64,000 nucleotides of DNA from a virus (taxonomy: Duplodnaviria > Caudoviricetes), in IMG/VR virus record IMGVR_UViG_3300031260_000038, positions 15,099-79,098 of that record. One strand, 5' to 3'. Positions within the stretch are counted from its first letter, which is position 1; each line of letters opens with the position of its first letter. This document shows, one piece after another, positions 10,867 to 25,410 of this stretch. The position numbers and the translations under genes were made by a program. The notes under the pieces were generated by a model. That model worked only from the letters and a program-made list of their open reading frames with translations, was not told the DNA's origin and searched no databases.

Positions 10867-11013
10867 TTATATTGTAGGTATTATTTCTTCAAGATAGCCA
10901 CGAATGGTTATAGCCACGGCTACGTCTCCACCTACAGCTTCTGCATAGGCATCAAATGTAGTTCCTTCTGGAAACACAAGTGGCAGTTCTAATGGAATAT
11001 CTACTAATTGGTC
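10867..11013 (-). pseudogene. Orphan 48-codon C-terminal gene fragment
   Basis: DQLVDIPLELPLVFPEGTTFDAYAEAVGGDVAVAITIRGYLEEIIPTI-stop; preceded in frame by TAA, no start codon at its 5' end. Confidence 0.55.
10996..11010 (-). repeat. att-like direct repeat (partner 15434-15448)
   Basis: caattagtagatatt vs caattggcggatatt, 12/15, same frame (QLVDI / QLADI). Confidence 0.45.
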
Positions 11014-13915: not shown

Positions 13916-15655
13916 TCACCCCAAACTACGCCTGCGGCTTCGCCCAGTTGCTGAAAGCCGGGGCAAGACATACCAGCCCGAGCCCGCCAACGAGTCGCTG
14001 CCAACCAAGCAACGCAATCCACACCGAGCGCCAACGCTCAGAAGACCGAAAGACCGCCACACCCTTGTACCAGTAACCGGAGAATTTGTATAGATACCAT
14101 CGCCAAATCCAGTAGAAGAACCCGCTAATGACTCAACAGGCACAATTACAGATGGATTATTTTCGTCGATTGCTATTTTGCTAATATACTGCCAAGCGTT
14201 ATTTGTTTGTGTCAATTGATAACCAACTAAATCATAATTAGAAGTTATTGAAGTTGCGTAATTATGACAATCGTAACAAGCGTAAACTTCAATTTTGTAC
14301 GTTCCGGTATTGTCGTTGTTGATTATCAAGTTTTGAATGACTTCATAACCACCAACCATCACTTCTATGCCGTTGATGATAAAGGGTTCTTTGCCTGATA
14401 AATTGTTATAAGGCGAACCATCTTGACCGAGCACGTCATCACAGCCGCCGCTGTTCCAAGGCATTGTTGATATTTTAGTTGACAAGGTGGTGTCGAAAAC
14501 AGCAGAATCCACATAGACAGCGCTGTTGCCATCGCCTAAATCTTCAATAGATGTTATTTTAACTCTATTTGCCAAGTCGTGAACGCTTGCGTTTGCTCTA
14601 TCTGTCGTTGTAGCGTTGCCAACCGAAACAGTCGAACCAACAAGCAAGTAAGCGCCTTCTGCATTTGACACAACAACACGATTAACCCCGGTTTCCGCAA
14701 CCCTATTGGAATACTGGGCATAGTAAGCCTGACAACCTTTCATCACATCGTCTGATATTGTTGTTGCGTATTTAAGCCACATCATCAACTGCACGTAAAA
14801 ATCATCGTGAGAAGTTTTGCCGCTATACTGAGCGCCTTTGGCGGCAAACGCTGTAATTTGTCCATTGTGGCTCATATTCACATATTCAGGATAAACACCG
14901 CTGATGGACGCAAGATTGTTACTTTCGTGTACGTTTCTTCCTGCGACATACTTAGCGAACAGCAAATAAGGTCTGATTGTTCCGTCGGGCTTTTCTGCCG
15001 GTTGTAGAATTTTGTAACCCTCGTATGGAAAATCAGTATACGAAACTTCCCAATAAGTGTCCGTAAATGTTACTTTAAAATACCCCGCCATCGCCATGAT
15101 GTAGACATCGCCGTTCGTGCCGTCACGCCTGAAATTAGAATCGCCTTTTATTGCTGTAACGTGGTAATCGTCGTTTGCATCTACATGAGCGTTGACTTCA
15201 ATCGACCGAAACAGACCGATGTTTTCGTAGTCGTTTCTGCCTTTGATGGTGTTTGTTGACGGTTCACAGACAAGACCCATGCTATCATCAAGTTTTGTTC
15301 CGAGTGGTGACTGTGACACAGAGAACAGATTGAACCTTACAGTGTAGATTTTCCCTGTGCGTTGTGCATTCCAGAATCCACCTAATCCGATATACTCAGT
15401 ACCATTGAAATAAACATCGTTCACGTTTGACGCAATATCCGCCAATTGTGTATCTAGTTCATCTATTGCATCTTGTGTATTAGTAGCCGTAAGTCCACTT
15501 GTAGTATTATTATATTCTAAATCTATTGCTGACGCTTCTGCATAGCTACCTGTGCCATCACCTTTTAGAACGCCGTTTACGTCTCTCATTGTTTGCAACA
15601 TCTCGCCATATTTAGTAGATGCTATCGGCTGACCATTATACATTAAAACAGCCAT
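13916..15655 (-). CDS. DGR1 target: tail fibre / receptor-binding protein with C-terminal CLec/Mtd-like variable domain
   Basis: VR1 at the C-terminus; short N-terminal stalk motif TATNTQDAIDEL. Confidence 0.85.
   Translation of the reverse strand: MAVLMYNGQPIASTKYGEMLQTMRDVNGVLKGDGTGSYAEASAIDLEYNNTTSGLTATNTQDAIDELDTQLADIASNVNDVYFNGTEYIGLGGFWNAQRTGKIYTVRFNLFSVSQSPLGTKLDDSMGLVCEPSTNTIKGRNDYENIGLFRSIEVNAHVDANDDYHVTAIKGDSNFRRDGTNGDVYIMAMAGYFKVTFTDTYWEVSYTDFPYEGYKILQPAEKPDGTIRPYLLFAKYVAGRNVHESNNLASISGVYPEYVNMSHNGQITAFAAKGAQYSGKTSHDDFYVQLMMWLKYATTISDDVMKGCQAYYAQYSNRVAETGVNRVVVSNAEGAYLLVGSTVSVGNATTTDRANASVHDLANRVKITSIEDLGDGNSAVYVDSAVFDTTLSTKISTMPWNSGGCDDVLGQDGSPYNNLSGKEPFIINGIEVMVGGYEVIQNLIINNDNTGTYKIEVYACYDCHNYATSITSNYDLVGYQLTQTNNAWQYISKIAIDENNPSVIVPVESLAGSSTGFGDGIYTNSPVTGTRVWRSFGLLSVGARCGLRCLVGSDSLAGSGWYVLPRLSATGRSRRRSLG
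13953..14063 (-). repeat. DGR1 variable repeat VR1
   Basis: Encodes VWRSFGLLSVGARCGLRCLVGSDSLAGSGWYVLPRLS vs TR1 VWQSFGNLNNDAQCGLRYLNGNNSLTNSNWNILPRQS. Confidence 0.96.
15434..15448 (-). repeat. att-like direct repeat inside target 1 (codons Q70-I74)
   Basis: 12/15 identity to 10996-11010; at the end of the stalk. Confidence 0.45.
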
Positions 15656-15679: not shown

Positions 15680-15708
15680 TTGACAAATCCCTTATTTTGT
15701 GCTATACT
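15680..15708 (+). promoter_or_regulatory. SigA-type promoter of recombinase 2
   Basis: TTGACA-17-TATACT with extended -10 TG; back-to-back with the target-1 RBS. Confidence 0.8.
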
Positions 15709-15729: not shown

Positions 15730-16590
15730 ATGATTGAAAATTTTTGTACTTACCTTTATTCTGTAAAAAACAGGTCACATAGAACGATAACTGAATATCG
15801 TTATGACCTATTGCGTTTTGAAAAATTTATTGGAAAAGACCTAAAAGATGTAGATAGCGGCGACATTATTTCTTATCTAAAAAAGATGTCAGACGAAAAG
15901 AAGTCTAGTGCCTGTAGAGCTAGAAAACTAAGCTCTATTAAATCGTTCTACCGCTATCTACAAATGTTTGGTCATGTTACGGTCAGCCCCGCCGTAAACA
16001 TTGGTACGCCCAAAATTGAAAAGAGATTGCCTAAATATTTATCCCTAGTCGAAGCTGTTAGGCTTGTTGATGTAGCCAAGCAAAACAAAGTTGAGTTTTA
16101 CAGACTAAGAGATACCTGTATGATACAAATGTTTCTTAACTGTGGTTTGCGTCTATCTGAACTTGTTGAACTGCAACTGACAAGAATTAGCGGTGATAAA
16201 ATAGAAGTTATTGGAAAAGGCAATAAACAAAGATTTATTTATATGAACAATGCTTGTCAAAAAGCTCTTTCAGAGTGGCTTAATTACCGACAAGAATATT
16301 CCTGTGACTATGTTTTTAGCACGAAAAGAGATAACAAAATATCCAAAACAGCTGTTCAGTCAGTTATAAAGAATTATTTCAGAAAAGCTGGTCTTGACAC
16401 AACTAAATACCATGTTCACAGCCTACGACATACGTCTGCCACACTAATGTATCAGTATGGCAAAACAGACGTGCGTGTGCTACAACAATTTTTAGGACAC
16501 TCTACGATAGAATCAACCATGATATATACTCACGTTAATGACAACCAATTAAGGTCTGCTGTTATTAACAATCCACTGGCTAACCTATAG
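15730..16590 (+). CDS. Tyrosine recombinase 2 (XerC-like), antisense to the surrounding operon
   Basis: NCGLRLSE, GKGNKQR, HSLRH, GHSTIESTMIY: catalytic residues intact. Confidence 0.92.
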   Translation: MIENFCTYLYSVKNRSHRTITEYRYDLLRFEKFIGKDLKDVDSGDIISYLKKMSDEKKSSACRARKLSSIKSFYRYLQMFGHVTVSPAVNIGTPKIEKRLPKYLSLVEAVRLVDVAKQNKVEFYRLRDTCMIQMFLNCGLRLSELVELQLTRISGDKIEVIGKGNKQRFIYMNNACQKALSEWLNYRQEYSCDYVFSTKRDNKISKTAVQSVIKNYFRKAGLDTTKYHVHSLRHTSATLMYQYGKTDVRVLQQFLGHSTIESTMIYTHVNDNQLRSAVINNPLANL

Positions 16591-16594
16591 GCGA

Positions 16595-16610
16595 AATCTT
16601 AATTTGGTTC
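16595..16610 (+). repeat. 16-bp inverted repeat, left copy
   Basis: aatcttaatttggttc, 4 bp after the recombinase-2 stop; exact reverse complement of 19661-19676. Confidence 0.8.
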
Positions 16611-16710
16611 AATCTGAGTAATTAATTCCCGTGATAGACTTGTATTCTTCTTTTGTAATACGCTTCATTTTGACTAAAAATTTATACAACCTTATTTCAG
16701 CATCGCTCAC
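16609..16710 (-). CDS. XkdX-like small protein (33 aa, not in ORF track)
   Basis: MSDAEIRLYKFLVKMKRITKEEYKSITGINYSD; RITKEEYxxITG motif; GTGA coupling. Confidence 0.7.
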   Translation of the reverse strand: MSDAEIRLYKFLVKMKRITKEEYKSITGINYSD

Positions 16711-17015
16711 TTAGCACCCCCTCCTGACAACAAAACTATTTCTGTTAAATCTGCCAACAATTGGTTTAACTGTTCATTCTCAATTTCTTCTTGCGTTTTT
16801 TGCCTCAATACTATCCATGATTTTCCGTCACGAATAATATTGGACAGCAGTTTCATGTCTTGATATGTTTCTATTTTTTCTCCGTCTGATATTTCTACCA
16901 AGGACAAGTTATTTTCAAAAATTGAATCTTCAATAACTTGTCTGGCAATATAATTGTTTCCGTTTAATTCAAGGTTTTCTATAATTGTTCCGTCTGCCAA
17001 TTTTATGTGGTACAT
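16707..17015 (-). CDS. XkdW-like tail-fibre-associated protein
   Basis: C-terminal KTQEEIENEQLNQLLADL motif; upstream of the XkdX-like gene. Confidence 0.55.
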   Translation of the reverse strand: MYHIKLADGTIIENLELNGNNYIARQVIEDSIFENNLSLVEISDGEKIETYQDMKLLSNIIRDGKSWIVLRQKTQEEIENEQLNQLLADLTEIVLLSGGGAK

Positions 17016-18190
17016 TGATTGACCCCCTTTAATTCGTTATATAAATTATTCATATTTGTTCGTTGCTGTCTGCTCATTAGTTTGTAGTGATTGTTGAACC
17101 ACGATGTAAACAAACACTCAAAATCTTTTTTGTCTAAAACAGGAGCAAGTTTTTTCATTTTTCTCCGCATTGCTGTTAGTCTTTTGGGATTTATTTTCTT
17201 TATAATTCGACCTGTTTCTGTTAGCGAATATTGTATTTGCAAAAATCTCCAACAACTTGATAACTTGCAAATTCTTGTCTTTTTAGTGTTTATTGTGATT
17301 CCTATTTTTGTAGATTCCTCGACTATTTCTTTTAGCAGTGATTCTAAATAATTTTTATCTTGGTGAATTACATAACTGTCGTCCATGTACCTGCCGTATA
17401 GCTTTACGCCCTTAACAATTTTTATATAGTTGTCTAAGTCTTTAGGATAAGCTATGCCAGCAACCTGAGCTACTTGGTCGCCTATATTAAGATGCTTGTC
17501 CATTATTTTGCCGCCAACACATAACGCTTTATCTATATTTTGATATTCTAAAGAGTTAAATAATTCTTGCATGCATACGGAATATTGTTCGTCACTCATA
17601 TAGGAAACATCTACCCGAGACTTTTCAATAGCTTTTTCAAGAACCCATAAAGCGTCATTTTTAATTCCTATTTCTTCAAATATTTTTAGAAAATAATCGT
17701 GTCTTATATTGTCAAAGTATTTGCTGAAATCTATTAACAATATATATCCATCGTTGCTACCGTGCTTAGAGTAAAATCGTCTTAAATGTCTTTCAAACCT
17801 ATCCCTTGTAAAGCCAATACCCTTACCTTCTAAACTTGCTCCGTTATCATGTATAAGGTATTTTTTTATTACAGGAATCAACTCTTCTGTGCATAGACAA
17901 CTTTTAACCACCCTGTCTCTTATGTGCTCTCCTGTTATTAATCTTGTTTTCCCTCTTTCTTTTAATATAAATTCTGAACCATCAGACAATTCAAACGTTC
18001 GATTCTTTATAGATTTATAAGTTTCTGATATTTCTGGCAAAAACCTCATTTCATATTTTTGAACAGAGGCTTTCCAATCACTATTCTTCTTGGTCTTTTT
18101 ATAAGCTTTATAAAGATTATTAGAATTAAATGTTTCATGCTCACAGCTACAATTCTCGTAAGAAGTAGCGTCATGTTTAGTATTTACCAT
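17003..18190 (-). CDS. DGR reverse transcriptase RT2
   Basis: IRDRVV, LLIDFSKYFDNIRH, LNIGDQVAQ, YGRYMDD; follows avd and TR. Confidence 0.94.
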   Translation of the reverse strand: MVNTKHDATSYENCSCEHETFNSNNLYKAYKKTKKNSDWKASVQKYEMRFLPEISETYKSIKNRTFELSDGSEFILKERGKTRLITGEHIRDRVVKSCLCTEELIPVIKKYLIHDNGASLEGKGIGFTRDRFERHLRRFYSKHGSNDGYILLIDFSKYFDNIRHDYFLKIFEEIGIKNDALWVLEKAIEKSRVDVSYMSDEQYSVCMQELFNSLEYQNIDKALCVGGKIMDKHLNIGDQVAQVAGIAYPKDLDNYIKIVKGVKLYGRYMDDSYVIHQDKNYLESLLKEIVEESTKIGITINTKKTRICKLSSCWRFLQIQYSLTETGRIIKKINPKRLTAMRRKMKKLAPVLDKKDFECLFTSWFNNHYKLMSRQQRTNMNNLYNELKGVNQCTT

Positions 18191-18251
18191 ACGGAAGGAT
18201 ATTTTCTCCTTTCTTTAATGCAAATCGGTCAAATGCCTTTTTAATTGCAAA

Positions 18252-18342
18252 ATTGAAATCGGGACGCGCGCCAAGAGAGTAAGAAGCGTTGTTGTTGTTG
18301 GCATTACCGTTGTTGTTGACATTGGCAAAGTTCGTCGATGAT
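18252..18342 (-). repeat. DGR2 template repeat TR2
   Basis: 91 bp, AAC-rich; 16 adenine and 4 non-adenine differences from VR2. Confidence 0.94.
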
Positions 18343-18362
18343 ATTAGAAAATACCCCATGGA

Positions 18363-18896
18363 TTAGTTGTTAAAATTTTTAGCAAACTTGTTGTCAGACT
18401 TTCTCCATCCTTTTATCAAAGATATCTCTTTTTCTATTCCATCTGAAAAACGTAAGTACTTATCAATATCAACTGGTAGCGTTTCAATTGCATATTGAAG
18501 CTCTTGTAGTAATCTGTTGCATTGACCTATCGCCCTATCCTGATGTATTCGCCTTTCAATCAATTCTTCTTTATAGTGAGGATAAATGCTGTTGGCTACA
18601 AAAATGTGTTCCTGAACACTTCTAAGACAGTCCATAACTGAATCTCTCTGGTCTATGATAAACCATTCTTCAAACGAGTTTGTCTTTTCCTTCCTATCAT
18701 CGTAATGCTTCTTTTCCGCATCGTTTAATTCATGATATGGTCGTTTCCCAAATGTTTTTGCTAAATATTCTTCTGACTTCTTACTACTGTAGCCAAAATC
18801 TCTCAAAAGCAAGTCTGTTATCTCTTTTCTGACTTTATAAAAATGATGAAACACCTCAAATTGAGATTCTTTTCTTTTTCGTTTTACGACTGACAC
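18363..18896 (-). CDS. avd: DGR accessory variability determinant (Avd-like four-helix bundle)
   Basis: MSVVKRKRKES start, basic and helical, C-terminal LIKGWRKSD; sits between target and TR. Confidence 0.85.
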   Translation of the reverse strand: MSVVKRKRKESQFEVFHHFYKVRKEITDLLLRDFGYSSKKSEEYLAKTFGKRPYHELNDAEKKHYDDRKEKTNSFEEWFIIDQRDSVMDCLRSVQEHIFVANSIYPHYKEELIERRIHQDRAIGQCNRLLQELQYAIETLPVDIDKYLRFSDGIEKEISLIKGWRKSDNKFAKNFNN

Positions 18897-18933
18897 TTAA
18901 TTTCTCCTTTTGTAAAATGTTTTAATTATCTAC

Positions 18934-18948
18934 GCCCCATAAAGGGGC
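18934..18948 (-). promoter_or_regulatory. Candidate DGR2 target-recognition hairpin
   Basis: GCCCC-TTTAT-GGGGC 5 bp after the target-2 stop. Confidence 0.6.
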
Positions 18949-18953
18949 TTGAT

Positions 18954-20492
18954 TTAAGAAATACAGAAAGCGGGACGCACGCCATAAGAGAGAGAAGCGC
19001 CGTAGTTGCCGGCAAGACCGTCGTTGGTGACATAGGCAAAGGTCGCCGATGATGAAACATCTCTCAACCAATAGGATTGCCTCGTATTCACGGATTGTGG
19101 GTTTGATGCAAATAGTGGGAATTGCGATTTATCCACATATACATTATTCGCCAAGCTAGTCCCTTGCGTTGCGTTGCCATAATGCTTAGTGCCATATACA
19201 TTAGCTTCAGTCATCAGTTCTACCGTTGAGTCATACCACGATCCACCACTTGTATACCCACTGGTTACCGCATTATGTAAATAGTTTCTATGACTTACCA
19301 CATGACCGCTAAAGGCGTTATTTATGGTGGTTTTTGCACTATTTAACCCAGATACATACATTTTGCTGCCAACATAAGCACCTGTTGTAATGTTAGTGTC
19401 ATTCATCACATGATTATACAGTGCTGTGTCTGGCACTATTACAGCGTGATTAGCGGTAAGCGCTGTATCGCCTGTATTGTGGTAATAATTGAAACAAGCT
19501 ATTCTGTAATTAATTCCACCGATAGTCCAATAGTCGCCAACATATAGGTCGTCAAATGTGCCGCTTGAAATGGCATTGTATTGCTCTGTTGTGACAGCCG
19601 AACCTAAATATTTACCCCTGAATATAGAGTTGTGAAACCCTGCGCCACTTGAAATTGGTAGAACCAAATTAAGATTAGTGTCTAATTTATCAATTGAACT
19701 GGTAACAGTTTCACCATCTGTTACATAATTATTTTCTGTATAAAGCCTGTCACCAACATTGTCATTTGTGTCTTTTAATTCCATATCTAACTTGTCTATG
19801 CTTGCAGTTAAAGCTTCACCATCTGTTACATAATTTTCTTCAGTATAAAGCTGAGAACCTTTATCTTCACCTATTTCTTGTAAAGCATCTTCAACAGTGT
19901 TGCCGCTATAATATCCGCCGCCATCTGTTATACTTATTGTGTTAGCGTTGTTTATTAAAAGGTCTCCTTCTACATCTGTTATAATATATACTTGGTCTGA
20001 TTCAATTTTACCCTGTGCATCAAGAGCATCATATTCAGCCTGAGTTAAATATATGGCTGTAATTTTATACCAACTGCTATCTGGTGGCCCTGCTTCACCG
20101 CCACGCATTACATCAAATTTAATTTCACCGCTACTTATTCTTTCGTCTGCATCAGTAATTGTTATTTTTATTGTTACTTTACCTATAAAAGCAAACACAG
20201 CAGGATTTATTTGTAAAACTATTTCTCCATCAACTATATTTACATCATTACCAAAACTTTGGGTATATACAGGTTCACATTGATTCTCAATATAATAATG
20301 AACATCAATTGTTTCTGTTGTAAGTGTTAATTTAGCGCCATTTTTTTGTACTTCAATATAAAAAATATTGCCATATAAATCACCACGACTAAAAAAAGGA
20401 ACAACATATTTATATGTTTGATTATTATATGGAGCTATAATATGTTTACCTGTATATAAATCAAGCCAAACTTTGTATTCTTTTTTAGCCAT
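18954..20492 (-). CDS. DGR2 target: baseplate-anchored tail fibre (BppU-like N-terminus, stalk repeats, CLec-type C-terminus)
   Basis: FSRGD N-terminal motif, LTQAEYDAL motif, 35-aa repeat, C-terminal YWLRD...GVRPAF. Confidence 0.87.
   Translation of the reverse strand: MAKKEYKVWLDLYTGKHIIAPYNNQTYKYVVPFFSRGDLYGNIFYIEVQKNGAKLTLTTETIDVHYYIENQCEPVYTQSFGNDVNIVDGEIVLQINPAVFAFIGKVTIKITITDADERISSGEIKFDVMRGGEAGPPDSSWYKITAIYLTQAEYDALDAQGKIESDQVYIITDVEGDLLINNANTISITDGGGYYSGNTVEDALQEIGEDKGSQLYTEENYVTDGEALTASIDKLDMELKDTNDNVGDRLYTENNYVTDGETVTSSIDKLDTNLNLVLPISSGAGFHNSIFRGKYLGSAVTTEQYNAISSGTFDDLYVGDYWTIGGINYRIACFNYYHNTGDTALTANHAVIVPDTALYNHVMNDTNITTGAYVGSKMYVSGLNSAKTTINNAFSGHVVSHRNYLHNAVTSGYTSGGSWYDSTVELMTEANVYGTKHYGNATQGTSLANNVYVDKSQFPLFASNPQSVNTRQSYWLRDVSSSATFAYVTNDGLAGNYGASLSYGVRPAFCIS
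18963..19053 (-). repeat. DGR2 variable repeat VR2
   Basis: Colinear with TR2 at a constant offset of 711 bp. Confidence 0.94.
19661..19676 (+). repeat. 16-bp inverted repeat, right copy (codons N273-L278 of target 2)
   Basis: gaaccaaattaagatt; at the stalk / C-terminal domain boundary. Confidence 0.8.
19710..19835 (-). repeat. Stalk repeat in target 2
   Basis: 21-bp exact direct repeat (19710-19730, 19815-19835), period 105 bp; LYTExNYVTDGExxTxSIDKLD twice. Confidence 0.85.
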
Positions 20493-22517: not shown

Positions 22518-23039
22518 TTACTCAAAAATCATTTCTATATAATCGCCAAATTCAGGCTCTATATAAAAATTTTCAATTACTTCTATCGGTATTTTGTCAA
22601 AATCAAAATTAAAATCTACAGATAATAATTCTTCCATTTCTTTGTTGTAATCAGCTACATTATCAATATCATAAATTATAGTATTATTATCAATAGTAGC
22701 CATAATAAAAGACCTATCTTTTTCTGATAGTTTATTAATGTCTATTGCTTTAATATATAGCCCGCTATCCTTTTTTATAATTTCAATATCAACTCTTGAC
22801 CTAATTACTTTAGCTTGAATATCAGAAATAATAACAAATTGATTGTAATTACCAGAATCATCTTTTTTACAATATTCATCTAATATATTTTTTACCTGTT
22901 CATCAAGAATTGTTATTTCGTCATTTATAATTTTTGATAGCCGCTTTAACTGTATTGCATATTTAACATTCATTTTATATTTTGACAGTAATTCTAATGT
23001 TTTTGCAAACTTTTTTATTTCAAAATATTTAATTTGCAT
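22518..23039 (-). CDS. Hypothetical protein
   Basis: 173-aa ORF in late operon. Confidence 0.55.
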   Translation of the reverse strand: MQIKYFEIKKFAKTLELLSKYKMNVKYAIQLKRLSKIINDEITILDEQVKNILDEYCKKDDSGNYNQFVIISDIQAKVIRSRVDIEIIKKDSGLYIKAIDINKLSEKDRSFIMATIDNNTIIYDIDNVADYNKEMEELLSVDFNFDFDKIPIEVIENFYIEPEFGDYIEMIFE

Positions 23040-23040
23040 A

Positions 23041-25410
23041 TTATTTGTTTTTCTCCTTTAATTCTTTTAATTCATCTCTTAGTTTCTTATAGCCTTGAAT
23101 AGCAAGCATCGCAATAGGTAATGGCTGAAGACCGTGATTTATTGTTCCGTCTTCTAATTCTTCCTTAATACCTATATATTTATATGCTTTATGGTCGCTA
23201 ATTTCATCAGCTATAACGCCAAGTTGTATTGCTGATTGTGATATAGTTTTATCTTTTTTGTCTTTATTAACTTTGTAATTATAAGTACATTCTTTAGCCG
23301 CTATAAGGTCTAATAAATCTATAAAATCTTCTTCATAGACTTCATCATTAGAGACTTTATCATTAGCGGTAGCTGTATTAGTGTTAGCCGCCACTGTTTT
23401 TATGTTATCAACTATAGCTGTAGCTTCATTAGCGGTAGCTATACTGTTTCTATTAGTTATTGTTTTAATATTAGCTATATCTTTACTTATTACTGGCTTA
23501 ATATTTTCTTTGTCTTTTAAACCTGATGTTTGTATAGTGCCATTAACAGCATAGACAGCTTGCCAGCGCTTTGAAGATTCTCCAAGACCTATAGCACCGT
23601 CAGTAGAAGGGCGTAAAGTTGTAGCATATACAGATAAAGGTAACTCATTAGCACCAAGATATATATCAGAAGACGTTCCACCAATTACAACTTTATTAGA
23701 CTCTGAATGAACAAAATAGGGAGCAACAACGAGATAATTACTTATAACACTTGTACAAGTTACATCACCATTGATTTTCATATTACTATAAAAAATATGC
23801 CTTTGTGTTTGTCCATTAAAGTCAGTGCTATTATTCAAAACGTATTGTCGGTTAATAAAGCCATCAGATTGTCTTATACCAAACCCCAAAAGAGATGCGT
23901 TATGTGAACACACTATATCCAAGGACCTTTTAGAAGGATCACCTAAAACATTATAAGTGGCAGAAATCGCTCCTGATAATTCATTATTTTCATAAAAGTA
24001 AATGTTATTACCATAAGTCGTGTTAAATTCCTCCCCATCTTCATAAACCCGTGGTGTATTTAGTTTTCCTAAAACTTCTAAATTTGAGCCGTTCCAAGTT
24101 AAACAATCATTGCCAAAAGAAAAAGTGCCATCATTAAGATTAAGCCAACTATTATTGTTTTGACTTTTAAGAATCCCTGTAGTAACATAGTCTGCCACAA
24201 CTTCTGTAGTTTGTATAACTTGCTCTACAGCCTTAACCCTAATAGTTCCATCATTATTAACAGCATAACTTGATTTATTTAGGTTTTTAAAAAGCATTGG
24301 TATTTCTTTTTTTCTGTCAACAAAATTAGCTGTCTCTAATACTACTTCATAAGGTTTATCATAACTAATACTATAACCGACAATCATTTGTAAAAAATAT
24401 TCATCAATAACATTATCTGAAAATTCTACACTCTTGCCTAAAAATAAATTATCTGCCGCATTTTCATCAAGATATGTTAAACTAACACTAACTTTTGGCT
24501 GAGATAATTCTTCTAACTTCTTAATAGCACCATTATAAAGAGTAGGAGCATCTACATAATTGCTATCTCTCCAAACATACTCTTTTCTGAATATTGCAGG
24601 ATTAGCTTCTATTTCAGCCATAGTATAACCACGACTTGTATAATAATCATAGTTTTCAATATAGGTATAGCCACCTGTTTCTGTTATTAAATCAATGTCT
24701 TCACCAGTAACAGGATTAGTGCCGCCAAAAGCATAAAGCCTTGTTGTTAATTCACTTATATCTCTCGCCACTTGTATGTTTTTAGTATTTAATGCCGTAA
24801 GTTGTAGCGGATTAGCAGGATTATATAAATCTTTATTGTATAAATTAACTAAATGGACAGCGCCGCTAAATCCATCTCTGAAACCACTCTCAAAAATAAC
24901 ATAGCAATCATATAGCTCCGCTAATTCTGTTATTGTTTGAAACAGCGATTGTTCTTTTGTTTCTATTGTTCTATAAACTTCAGGAGCAATAATAGCCCCT
25001 ATCTGCCAACCATATTTAGGTGTTTCTCCATCATATAAAATTGCTCTTAATCCATCTTCAGGTAAAAGTGGAGCAAGTGTTTCTTCTACTACCATTTTTG
25101 ACTGCAATGTCTTAGAATAGTGCATACACTCTATTGACCAACTATATTTACCATTAGCCGACATCATTTTTGTTTTTTGCACTACTTCATAAAATTCGTG
25201 CTGATAATAAATTAAAACACCATGTTCTACTTCTTTTGAGTTAGGATTTTCAACAGGTAATTCAAAATTTAATTTAAATATTTCATTTATTTTATAACTA
25301 ACTGTTGGGTTTAATGGAGATGTGCCATTTCTGTTGTATAAATCACAAACAGGATTAAACAACAAATCATAAACTTCCATAATTCCATTTTTTTCCATTT
25401 TTATAACCAC
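23041..25410 (-). CDS. Tail spike / baseplate hub (Tal-like) with C-terminal S74-like chaperone
   Basis: TTRLYAFGG motif; KRWQAVYAVNGTIQTS...KENIK; follows the distal tail gene. Confidence 0.75.
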   Translation of the reverse strand: MVIKMEKNGIMEVYDLLFNPVCDLYNRNGTSPLNPTVSYKINEIFKLNFELPVENPNSKEVEHGVLIYYQHEFYEVVQKTKMMSANGKYSWSIECMHYSKTLQSKMVVEETLAPLLPEDGLRAILYDGETPKYGWQIGAIIAPEVYRTIETKEQSLFQTITELAELYDCYVIFESGFRDGFSGAVHLVNLYNKDLYNPANPLQLTALNTKNIQVARDISELTTRLYAFGGTNPVTGEDIDLITETGGYTYIENYDYYTSRGYTMAEIEANPAIFRKEYVWRDSNYVDAPTLYNGAIKKLEELSQPKVSVSLTYLDENAADNLFLGKSVEFSDNVIDEYFLQMIVGYSISYDKPYEVVLETANFVDRKKEIPMLFKNLNKSSYAVNNDGTIRVKAVEQVIQTTEVVADYVTTGILKSQNNNSWLNLNDGTFSFGNDCLTWNGSNLEVLGKLNTPRVYEDGEEFNTTYGNNIYFYENNELSGAISATYNVLGDPSKRSLDIVCSHNASLLGFGIRQSDGFINRQYVLNNSTDFNGQTQRHIFYSNMKINGDVTCTSVISNYLVVAPYFVHSESNKVVIGGTSSDIYLGANELPLSVYATTLRPSTDGAIGLGESSKRWQAVYAVNGTIQTSGLKDKENIKPVISKDIANIKTITNRNSIATANEATAIVDNIKTVAANTNTATANDKVSNDEVYEEDFIDLLDLIAAKECTYNYKVNKDKKDKTISQSAIQLGVIADEISDHKAYKYIGIKEELEDGTINHGLQPLPIAMLAIQGYKKLRDELKELKEKNK

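Follow-up and report, generated by a model that had tools for sequence, protein, structure and literature searches.

Why does a complete diversity-generating retroelement (DGR) of a tailed phage lie between two inverted copies of one short sequence, one of which is placed inside the very gene that the retroelement diversifies? This question is raised by a 64,000-nt stretch of viral DNA (Duplodnaviria; Caudoviricetes), further called the window, which covers positions 15,099 to 79,098 of the IMG/VR record IMGVR_UViG_3300031260_000038, a 79-kb virus record with an estimated completeness of 45%. The element in question, DGR2, is composed of a tail-fibre gene with a variable repeat (VR2) at the end of its head, a gene for an Avd-like protein, a template repeat (TR2), and a gene for a reverse transcriptase (RT2); two small genes follow, and then, on the opposite strand, the gene for a XerD-like tyrosine recombinase (recombinase-2). 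An earlier interpretation made from the window alone (below, the sequence-only reading) had proposed that this recombinase inverts the whole segment. Having compared the locus with other phage contigs, we think that this locus probably represents a fibre-head inversion system of the Rin/shufflon type, the invertible segment of which was replaced by an active DGR cassette.

The 16-mer AATCTTAATTTGGTTC was located at positions 16595-16610 of the plus strand, and its exact reverse complement at 19661-19676. The first copy (the distal site) is separated by a 4-nt gap from the recombinase-2 stop codon TAG (16588-16590). The second copy (the proximal site) corresponds to codons 273-278 of the 512-aa fibre, where it is read as N-L-N-L-V, between the constant N-terminal part with its 105-nt stalk repeats and the head, which starts from codon 278. 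The coordinates given in the sequence-only reading, as well as its placement of the site at the constant/variable boundary, agree with these data. No third copy of the 16-mer is present in the window, even with up to two mismatches allowed, and its first 15 nt have no additional copy with up to one mismatch across the 79-kb record.

The window is composed of 67% A+T and contains 11 distinct exact inverted pairs of at least 16 nt, three of them with arms no more than 5 kb apart, which speaks in favour of a chance origin of the repeat in AT-rich DNA. With 11 comparable pairs at hand, the 16-mer repeat by itself is not statistically special, and therefore its significance rests on the comparison with other contigs. 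The same comparison refutes the chance origin, which we regard as extremely improbable: both arms coincide exactly with the boundaries of a cassette that occurs in independent phage backgrounds, as described below.

In a close relative, the two sites delimit a quite different segment. The 46.6-kb Logan contig L053 (from run SRR25046494) belongs to the same phage (left of the distal site it is 99.6% identical to the window, and right of the proximal site, 97.9%) and retains both sites, the proximal copy being altered at the 16th base; however, only 682 nt lie between them, and the homology to the window breaks at 16612, at the inner edge of the distal site. The L053 fibre of 389 aa combines the N-terminal 277 residues of the window's fibre with a 111-residue head (head A). 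On the opposite strand, another head of 111 residues (head B) runs from the recombinase-side site in frame with N-L-N-L-V and without a start codon. Head B represents a genuine fibre head, as it can be aligned from end to end with the heads of two other fibres (38-39% identity, E-values of 3e-13 and 7e-12). The opposite state was revealed in L066, a contig of a different phage obtained by scanning IMG/VR for the 16-mer, in which 655 nt separate two exact inverted copies, the fibre carries a B-type head, and an A-type head is silent. In reverse orientation, the far end of the L066 segment is 80% identical to the initial 80 nt of the L053 segment, which form the start of head A. A head that would need inversion to be expressed is characteristic of switches of the Mu-G or P1-C type. 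The window has no start-less opposed head of this sort: the frame from the distal site stops after three codons. As for the silent A-type head of L066 (L066:5732-6066, minus strand), it resembles head A of L053 over the first 64 residues or so only, and its 3' part, overlapping the end of the expressed head, looks degenerate or frameshifted.

The organisation of L053 and L066 is similar to that of the Mu G segment (Gin), the P1 C segment (Cin), and the p15B system (Min), where an invertible segment carries two opposed fibre C-termini for one constant N-terminal part and is adjoined by the invertase gene. These systems are based on serine invertases, gix/cix sites, and an enhancer, whereas the locus of the window has a tyrosine recombinase; assignment to the serine invertase family (Gin, Cin, Min, Hin) was rejected since only tyrosine-recombinase domains were found at the locus. 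A tyrosine recombinase (Rci, acting at sfx sites) swaps the C-terminal segments of the PilV adhesin in the R64 shufflon, which is similar to the switch proposed here, although the R64 system belongs to a plasmid pilus and comprises several segments, and its Rci is another, longer protein. In the sfx sites, one side of the site is conserved together with the spacer, which may be compared with the one-sided 15-mer of our locus.

Phages possess such systems as well. The Rin shufflon was described in Bifidobacterium prophages (Mavrich et al. 2018, PMC6109161) and also in prophages of Eggerthella lenta (PMC8778435). As in our locus, a phage-encoded armless XerD-like tyrosine recombinase stands beside the variable segments, the receptor-binding protein keeps a constant N-terminal part, and short asymmetric crossover repeats are located at the constant/variable junction and past the gene's 3' end. 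The repeats differ in sequence and in length (11 bp in Rin, 15-16 bp here); Rin has several Rv cassettes, in contrast to the one segment with two sites considered here, and the segment of the window comprises a complete DGR and only one head. The likeness of recombinase-2 to Rin concerns its build and the layout of the locus, as known from the description of Rin. In the BV01-like phages of Phocaeicola, a tail-fibre shufflon was reported, the activity of which was shown by reads (preprint PMC13596623). There, too, the segment next to the recombinase overlaps with the fibre gene at its distal end, directional short motifs separate the cassettes, and some configurations shorten the protein via new stop codons; however, this shufflon consists of three small non-homologous cassettes and has no retroelement, and the locus of the window is known from contigs only. 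Tyrosine-invertase switches of fibres are already known in phages, and the layout of L053 and L066 is a further example of them.

The site itself is maintained as DNA. In 15 different flank combinations, its first 15 nt are invariant and the 16th is changed once, with free variation in the flanks on either side. Fibres with a protein identity of only about 40% (P0004, P0005, and P0006) also have N-L-N-L-V encoded by this 16-mer where the stalk meets the head; given the codon usage of this phage, a lineage would arrive at these five codons by chance with a probability of about 0.015. The position of the site in homologous phages, which the sequence-only reading had named as a check, proved to be conserved at the stalk/head junction of unrelated fibres. 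In one of these, L061, an inverted copy is located directly past the head, and the stop codon (T/GA) overlaps the site; the contig ends 36 nt further on.

Several side observations concern this sequence. A stop codon TGA that borrows its GA from the inverted site occurs in two unrelated cassettes, at the XkdX-like gene of the window (16609-16611) and at the B-type head of L061 (L061:6053-6056). The exact 16-mer was also found in the IMG/VR contigs L071, L073, and L081, where it is read as N-L-N-L-V 37 codons into an unrelated fibre-looking protein; this occurrence may be due to chance or to a more distant use of the same site. The other matches of the 16-mer in IMG/VR and in prokaryote genomes are in unrelated frames, and we rejected them as chance. 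A 2.1-kb contig (L098, ENA ERZ1305919) encodes a relative of recombinase-2 with 68% identity, which is frameshifted and broken by a stop; after it come a terminator-like hairpin and a degenerate site (two mismatches in 15), the latter adjoining a ThyX-like gene. Because of its frameshifted recombinase and degenerate site, L098 is uninformative.

Between its two sites, the window carries a 3.05-kb cassette composed of the head with VR2, avd, TR2, RT2, and the two small genes. Contigs with the same DGR were drawn from the IMG/VR, Logan, and JGI assemblies; all these data are of metagenomic origin, and most of the sites and cassettes were provided by one related sample series together with sludge and wastewater runs. 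Three backgrounds were found to carry the cassette: the lineage of the window; the lineage of L002 and L008, where the recombinase-2 DNA is only 78% identical to that of the window and target-1, the target gene of a second DGR, is 83% identical; and a smaller, siphovirus-like phage (L005-L009, L089-L093) with a fibre of approximately 330 aa, in which a holin gene and then an amidase gene stand past the distal site in place of the recombinase. In all three backgrounds, the interior of the cassette is 97.5-99.8% identical to the window, VR2 excepted, and an identical RT2 protein is encoded in 24 contigs representing two kinds of phage background.

The edges of this similarity coincide with the sites. 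In a 50-nt profile, the outer edge of the proximal site marks a fall in identity from about 100% to about 55%, and that of the distal site a fall to noise. The BLAST homology to cassette contigs of other phages stops exactly at 16595 in five contigs. The flanks reassort: in L008, the recombinase flank occurs together with a fibre stalk of the other type. One contig of a wastewater run extends over exactly 16595-19682 at a depth of 173, compared to about 45 for the stalk and about 0 for the recombinase, which fits a cassette node common to several contexts; in one sludge run, another, different flank begins at 16596. The near identity of the cassette across the backgrounds indicates that its spread was recent and repeated. 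A transposon with terminal inverted repeats was also considered and rejected since no target-site duplication flanks the cassette.

In L060 (Logan SRR29026315), the head outside VR2 (region 19100-19660 of the window) shows an identity of only 87.5%, as compared to 98-99% for RT2, avd, and the small genes, which indicates that the head can vary independently within the cassette. This contig and the Logan contigs L056-L058 end within the 105-nt tandem stalk repeats (19702-19883), and hence their breaks are attributed to the repeats and not to recombination sites.

Sharp boundaries may be produced in another way as well. The 16-mer could be a conserved linker for the homologous exchange of heads, with recombinase-2 being an integrase or a dimer resolvase and no inversion taking place. 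Homologous exchange would be expected to give sharp module edges at the only shared sequence; the siphovirus-like background does encode ERF and Gp157-like proteins, and some fibres (L062 and L064) have a single 16-mer with no inverted partner within the 5 kb examined. We find this explanation unlikely, because it accounts neither for the inverted recurrence of the sequence at the far end of the segment, nor for the start-less, in-frame opposed heads of L053 and L066, nor for the fixed 4-nt spacing between the site and the recombinase stop in diverged lineages. We prefer to regard the 16-mers as crossover sites because of the opposed heads, their opposite states in L053 and L066, the cassette edges falling at the sites, the invariant DNA of the sites, and the intact recombinase.

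Recombinase-2 is most likely the enzyme responsible for these events, as is suggested by its armless XerD-like build and by the fixed 4-nt spacing, which is kept in three lineages with recombinase DNA only 78% identical. The protein consists of a SAM-like core-binding domain and a catalytic domain, without an arm-binding domain; it is aligned with the E. coli XerD (1a0p) over the full length (E-value of 2e-34), and all its catalytic residues (R, K, H-x-x-R, H, and Y) are in place. Its identity as a chromosomal XerC or XerD was rejected because its scores of 227 and 215 bits are under the respective NCBIfam equivalog cut-offs (335 and 330). The closest relatives of recombinase-2 are two phage proteins (78% and 68% identical), followed by bacterial XerD-like proteins with about 45% identity; in the GenBank phage collection, neither a DNA relative nor a recombinase more than 36% identical was found.

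The retroelement enclosed by the sites is, according to its sequence features, actively diversifying: it has a reverse transcriptase, a TR/VR pair with adenine-specific differences, an Avd-type protein, and a polymorphic VR. The mismatches between TR2 and VR2 fall at the TR adenines; among 11 contigs of both background kinds, VR2 is polymorphic at 22 TR-adenine positions versus 7 non-adenine positions, and the remainder of the cassette is approximately 99-100% identical where VR2 varies. DGR2 resembles the DGR of Bordetella phage BPP-1 in the order target(VR)-avd-TR-RT, in the adenine-specific variation of VR, and in having a hairpin past VR, the position of which agrees with that of the hairpin of the Bordetella phage DGR, also located downstream of VR; unlike the BPP-1 type, the DGR of the window is bounded by candidate crossover sites within a fibre segment of the invertible type. 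Since VR2 is diversified also in the phages with a holin gene in place of the recombinase gene, diversification is independent of the neighbouring recombinase. Within TR2 (18268-18281), five clustered differences were noted between the window and other copies of the cassette, the surrounding DNA being identical.

This independence bears on the function which the sequence-only reading had ascribed to the locus, namely a selected phase switch with two states, in one of which the fibre is displayed, while in the other the fibre is off and avd-TR-RT is read from the recombinase-2 promoter. The underlying geometry was reproduced. When the segment is inverted by hand, the fibre ends with ..NLNLVQSE-stop, three codons past the site, with a length of 280 aa; the stop codon of the XkdX-like gene (T/GA), which straddles the inner edge of the distal site, survives; and VR, avd, TR, and RT come to lie downstream of the recombinase-2 promoter, at the place of which a promoter-like site is indeed found. 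This site has 11 of 12 consensus matches, the best in the region, and is a consensus match only. The near-consensus promoter points recombinase-2 toward the segment, no terminator-like site was found between recombinase-2 and the distal site, and transcription, now antisense to RT2, would become sense after inversion. A selected switch would also be in line with two perfect sites, an intact recombinase, and the adjacency of the cassette to recombinase-2 in two lineages with recombinases 22% different. Nevertheless, we consider such a switch rather unlikely: the cassette is about 99% identical everywhere, so that its pairing with the recombinase is recent and no long-term selection is visible; the same cassette with a diversified VR occurs in a phage having a holin and not a recombinase at the site, and the DGR therefore does not need the switch; and the inverted state was not seen in the contigs examined.

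Several observations weigh against the interpretation of the locus as a fibre-head inversion system that has received a DGR cassette. The DGR segment was never inverted among more than 30 contig records (several being the same contig twice), all of which are fibre-intact, and four runs followed at the contig level, two from sludge, one from wastewater, and one that may represent the source sample, gave no strand-changing joint among the joints listed. The inverted segment of the window offers no alternative head, and its flip looks costly. Several contigs with the cassette or with two heads are devoid of a recombinase in their recovered part (25-50% complete), no Phage_integrase match being found in the partial records of L066, L006, L009, and L007. 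In addition, as the siphovirus background encodes an annealing protein of the ERF type, homologous exchange at a short shared sequence could also yield sharp boundaries.

The other searches for the inverted state gave a similar result. Scans of the IMG/VR viral contigs for the inverted junction revealed fibre-intact arrangements only; one match to this junction in a metagenome contig, in an unrelated context, and two in prokaryote-genome contigs, in unrelated proteins, were rejected as chance. Exact-protein look-ups with recombinase-2, the gene upstream of the fibre, the 102-aa open reading frame (ORF), RT2, and XkdX returned the fibre-intact orientation only, and a protein search with the 389-aa fibre, which covered proteins of 213-681 aa, gave neither a truncated form of 280 aa nor a fusion of the N-terminal part with head B. 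The phage represented by L053 and the window is present in very few samples. As consensus contigs lose minority orientations, the missing inverted contigs are weak evidence either way. In the recombinase-driven inversion postulated by the sequence-only reading, the recombination sites tied to recombinase-2 are upheld by the comparative data, whereas the DGR segment is inverted in no contig examined. In view of the two perfect sites and the intact enzyme, we are inclined to think, with some reserve, that the DGR segment of the window still flips.

Based on these comparisons, we suppose the following mechanism. The XerD-like tyrosine recombinase would invert the segment between the in-frame junction site and the distal inverted copy, which in a two-head segment of the L053 type would swap the receptor-binding tip of the fibre. 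Such a two-head segment would have been replaced, exactly between the sites and by crossovers inside them, by the 3.05-kb DGR-bearing head cassette, which would recently have spread into at least three phage backgrounds. If the DGR segment flipped, the fibre would be left headless at 280 aa, and the DGR genes would come to run in the direction of recombinase transcription. The comparative data suggest a simpler history, in which a two-head switch already existed and recently received a DGR-bearing head through a swap of cassettes. The exchange may have been carried out by the site-specific enzyme acting between two genomes, or by homologous recombination at the shared 15-16 nt. That the DGR with its target head behaves as a portable cassette addressed by a site-specific recombinase, being exchanged between unrelated phages and flipped in the window, is a more tentative proposal, which we put forward as possible. 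The 15-16-bp sites serving the flip of fibre heads would then serve this transfer too, which would resemble recombinase-mediated cassette exchange.

The features of the locus are collected in the table. On the minus strand, tail genes are followed by endolysin-like and holin-like genes, a 124-aa gene, the fibre, the Avd-like gene, TR2, RT2, the 102-aa ORF, and the XkdX-like gene; beyond the latter there is recombinase-2 on the plus strand, after which come the second DGR (target-1, TR1/VR1, and RT1) and a second recombinase (recombinase-1). The gene content that the sequence-only reading gave for the segment stands with respect to VR2, avd, TR2, and RT2; its "XkdX-like" assignment received weak support, and its "XkdW-like" assignment was not retained, as no family match was obtained. 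The 102-aa ORF in the XkdW position is kept inside the cassette in all contexts.

Table. Features of the DGR2 locus and its flanks (window coordinates; a dot means that no strand is assigned).
Feature	Position	Strand	Basis or remark
Promoter-like site 5' of recombinase-2	15680..15708	+	TTGACA, 17 nt, TATACT; TG before second hexamer
Recombinase-2, 286 aa, XerD-like tyrosine recombinase, putative invertase	15730..16590	+	Pfam Phage_integrase 2e-34 plus Phage_int_SAM_1
Distal crossover site (left arm in the sequence-only reading)	16595..16610	+	exact 16-mer, predicted site
XkdX-like gene, 33 aa	16609..16710	-	phrog_134 1.7e-6; PF09693 "weak"
102-aa ORF in XkdW position	16707..17015	-	no Pfam or PHROGs match
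DGR reverse transcriptase RT2	17003..18190	-	RVT_1 5e-12
Template repeat TR2	18255..18342	-	alignment to VR2
Avd-like protein, 177 aa	18363..18896	-	phrog_3206 "Avd protein of DGR" 2e-6; no Pfam match
G+C-rich hairpin just past fibre stop, downstream of VR2	18934..18948	.	5 G-C pairs
Tail fibre, DGR target, 512 aa	18954..20492	-	BppU_N and DUF6273 matches
Variable repeat VR2, C-terminal end of fibre head	18966..19080	-	alignment to TR2
Proximal crossover site (predicted)	19661..19676	-	reads N-L-N-L-V in frame, stalk/head junction

In comparison with L002, RT1 and TR1 of the second DGR of the window show 94-98% identity, as against 72-85% for recombinase-1, the target-1 stalk, and recombinase-2. 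A 15-nt direct repeat (12 of 15 positions identical) occurs at 10996-11010 and 15434-15448 (minus strand), that is, 20 nt past the recombinase-1 stop and at codons 70-74 of target-1, and the pattern of this repeat matches only those two places. As far as these data indicate, DGR1 may represent another exchangeable module, the sites of which are directly oriented. In another part of the window, L004, a relative with 93-97% identity, has about 2 kb of extra DNA (L004:3462-5436, versus 23030-23057 of the window) between a 173-aa gene and a 789-aa tail gene.

Fibre inversion and DGRs are the two classic programmed routes to a change of receptor specificity, and hitherto they were described separately. 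In the Eggerthella prophages, rin and DGRs occur in different prophage clades and not together (PMC8778435). Full-text literature searches, together with the nearest papers, gave no description of a DGR located inside an invertible fibre segment or bounded by the crossover sites of a recombinase; the author of the sequence-only reading knew of no DGR under invertase control, and these searches likewise provided none.

In the locus presented here, a whole DGR is located inside the segment of a probable fibre switch, with its edges coinciding to the base with the predicted crossover sites; a near-unchanged cassette is met in unrelated phages of sludge and wastewater communities, and a conserved five-codon stretch of the fibre family is kept constant down to its DNA sequence. 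If the recombinase uses these sites, the locus would offer a testable mechanism for the movement of DGRs between phages as "head plus mutator" modules, as well as a natural pair of short sites with a small recombinase for cassette exchange. If the tentative portable-cassette proposal is true, two mechanisms of host-range diversification would be coupled in these phages, and DGRs would have a dedicated route of horizontal spread.

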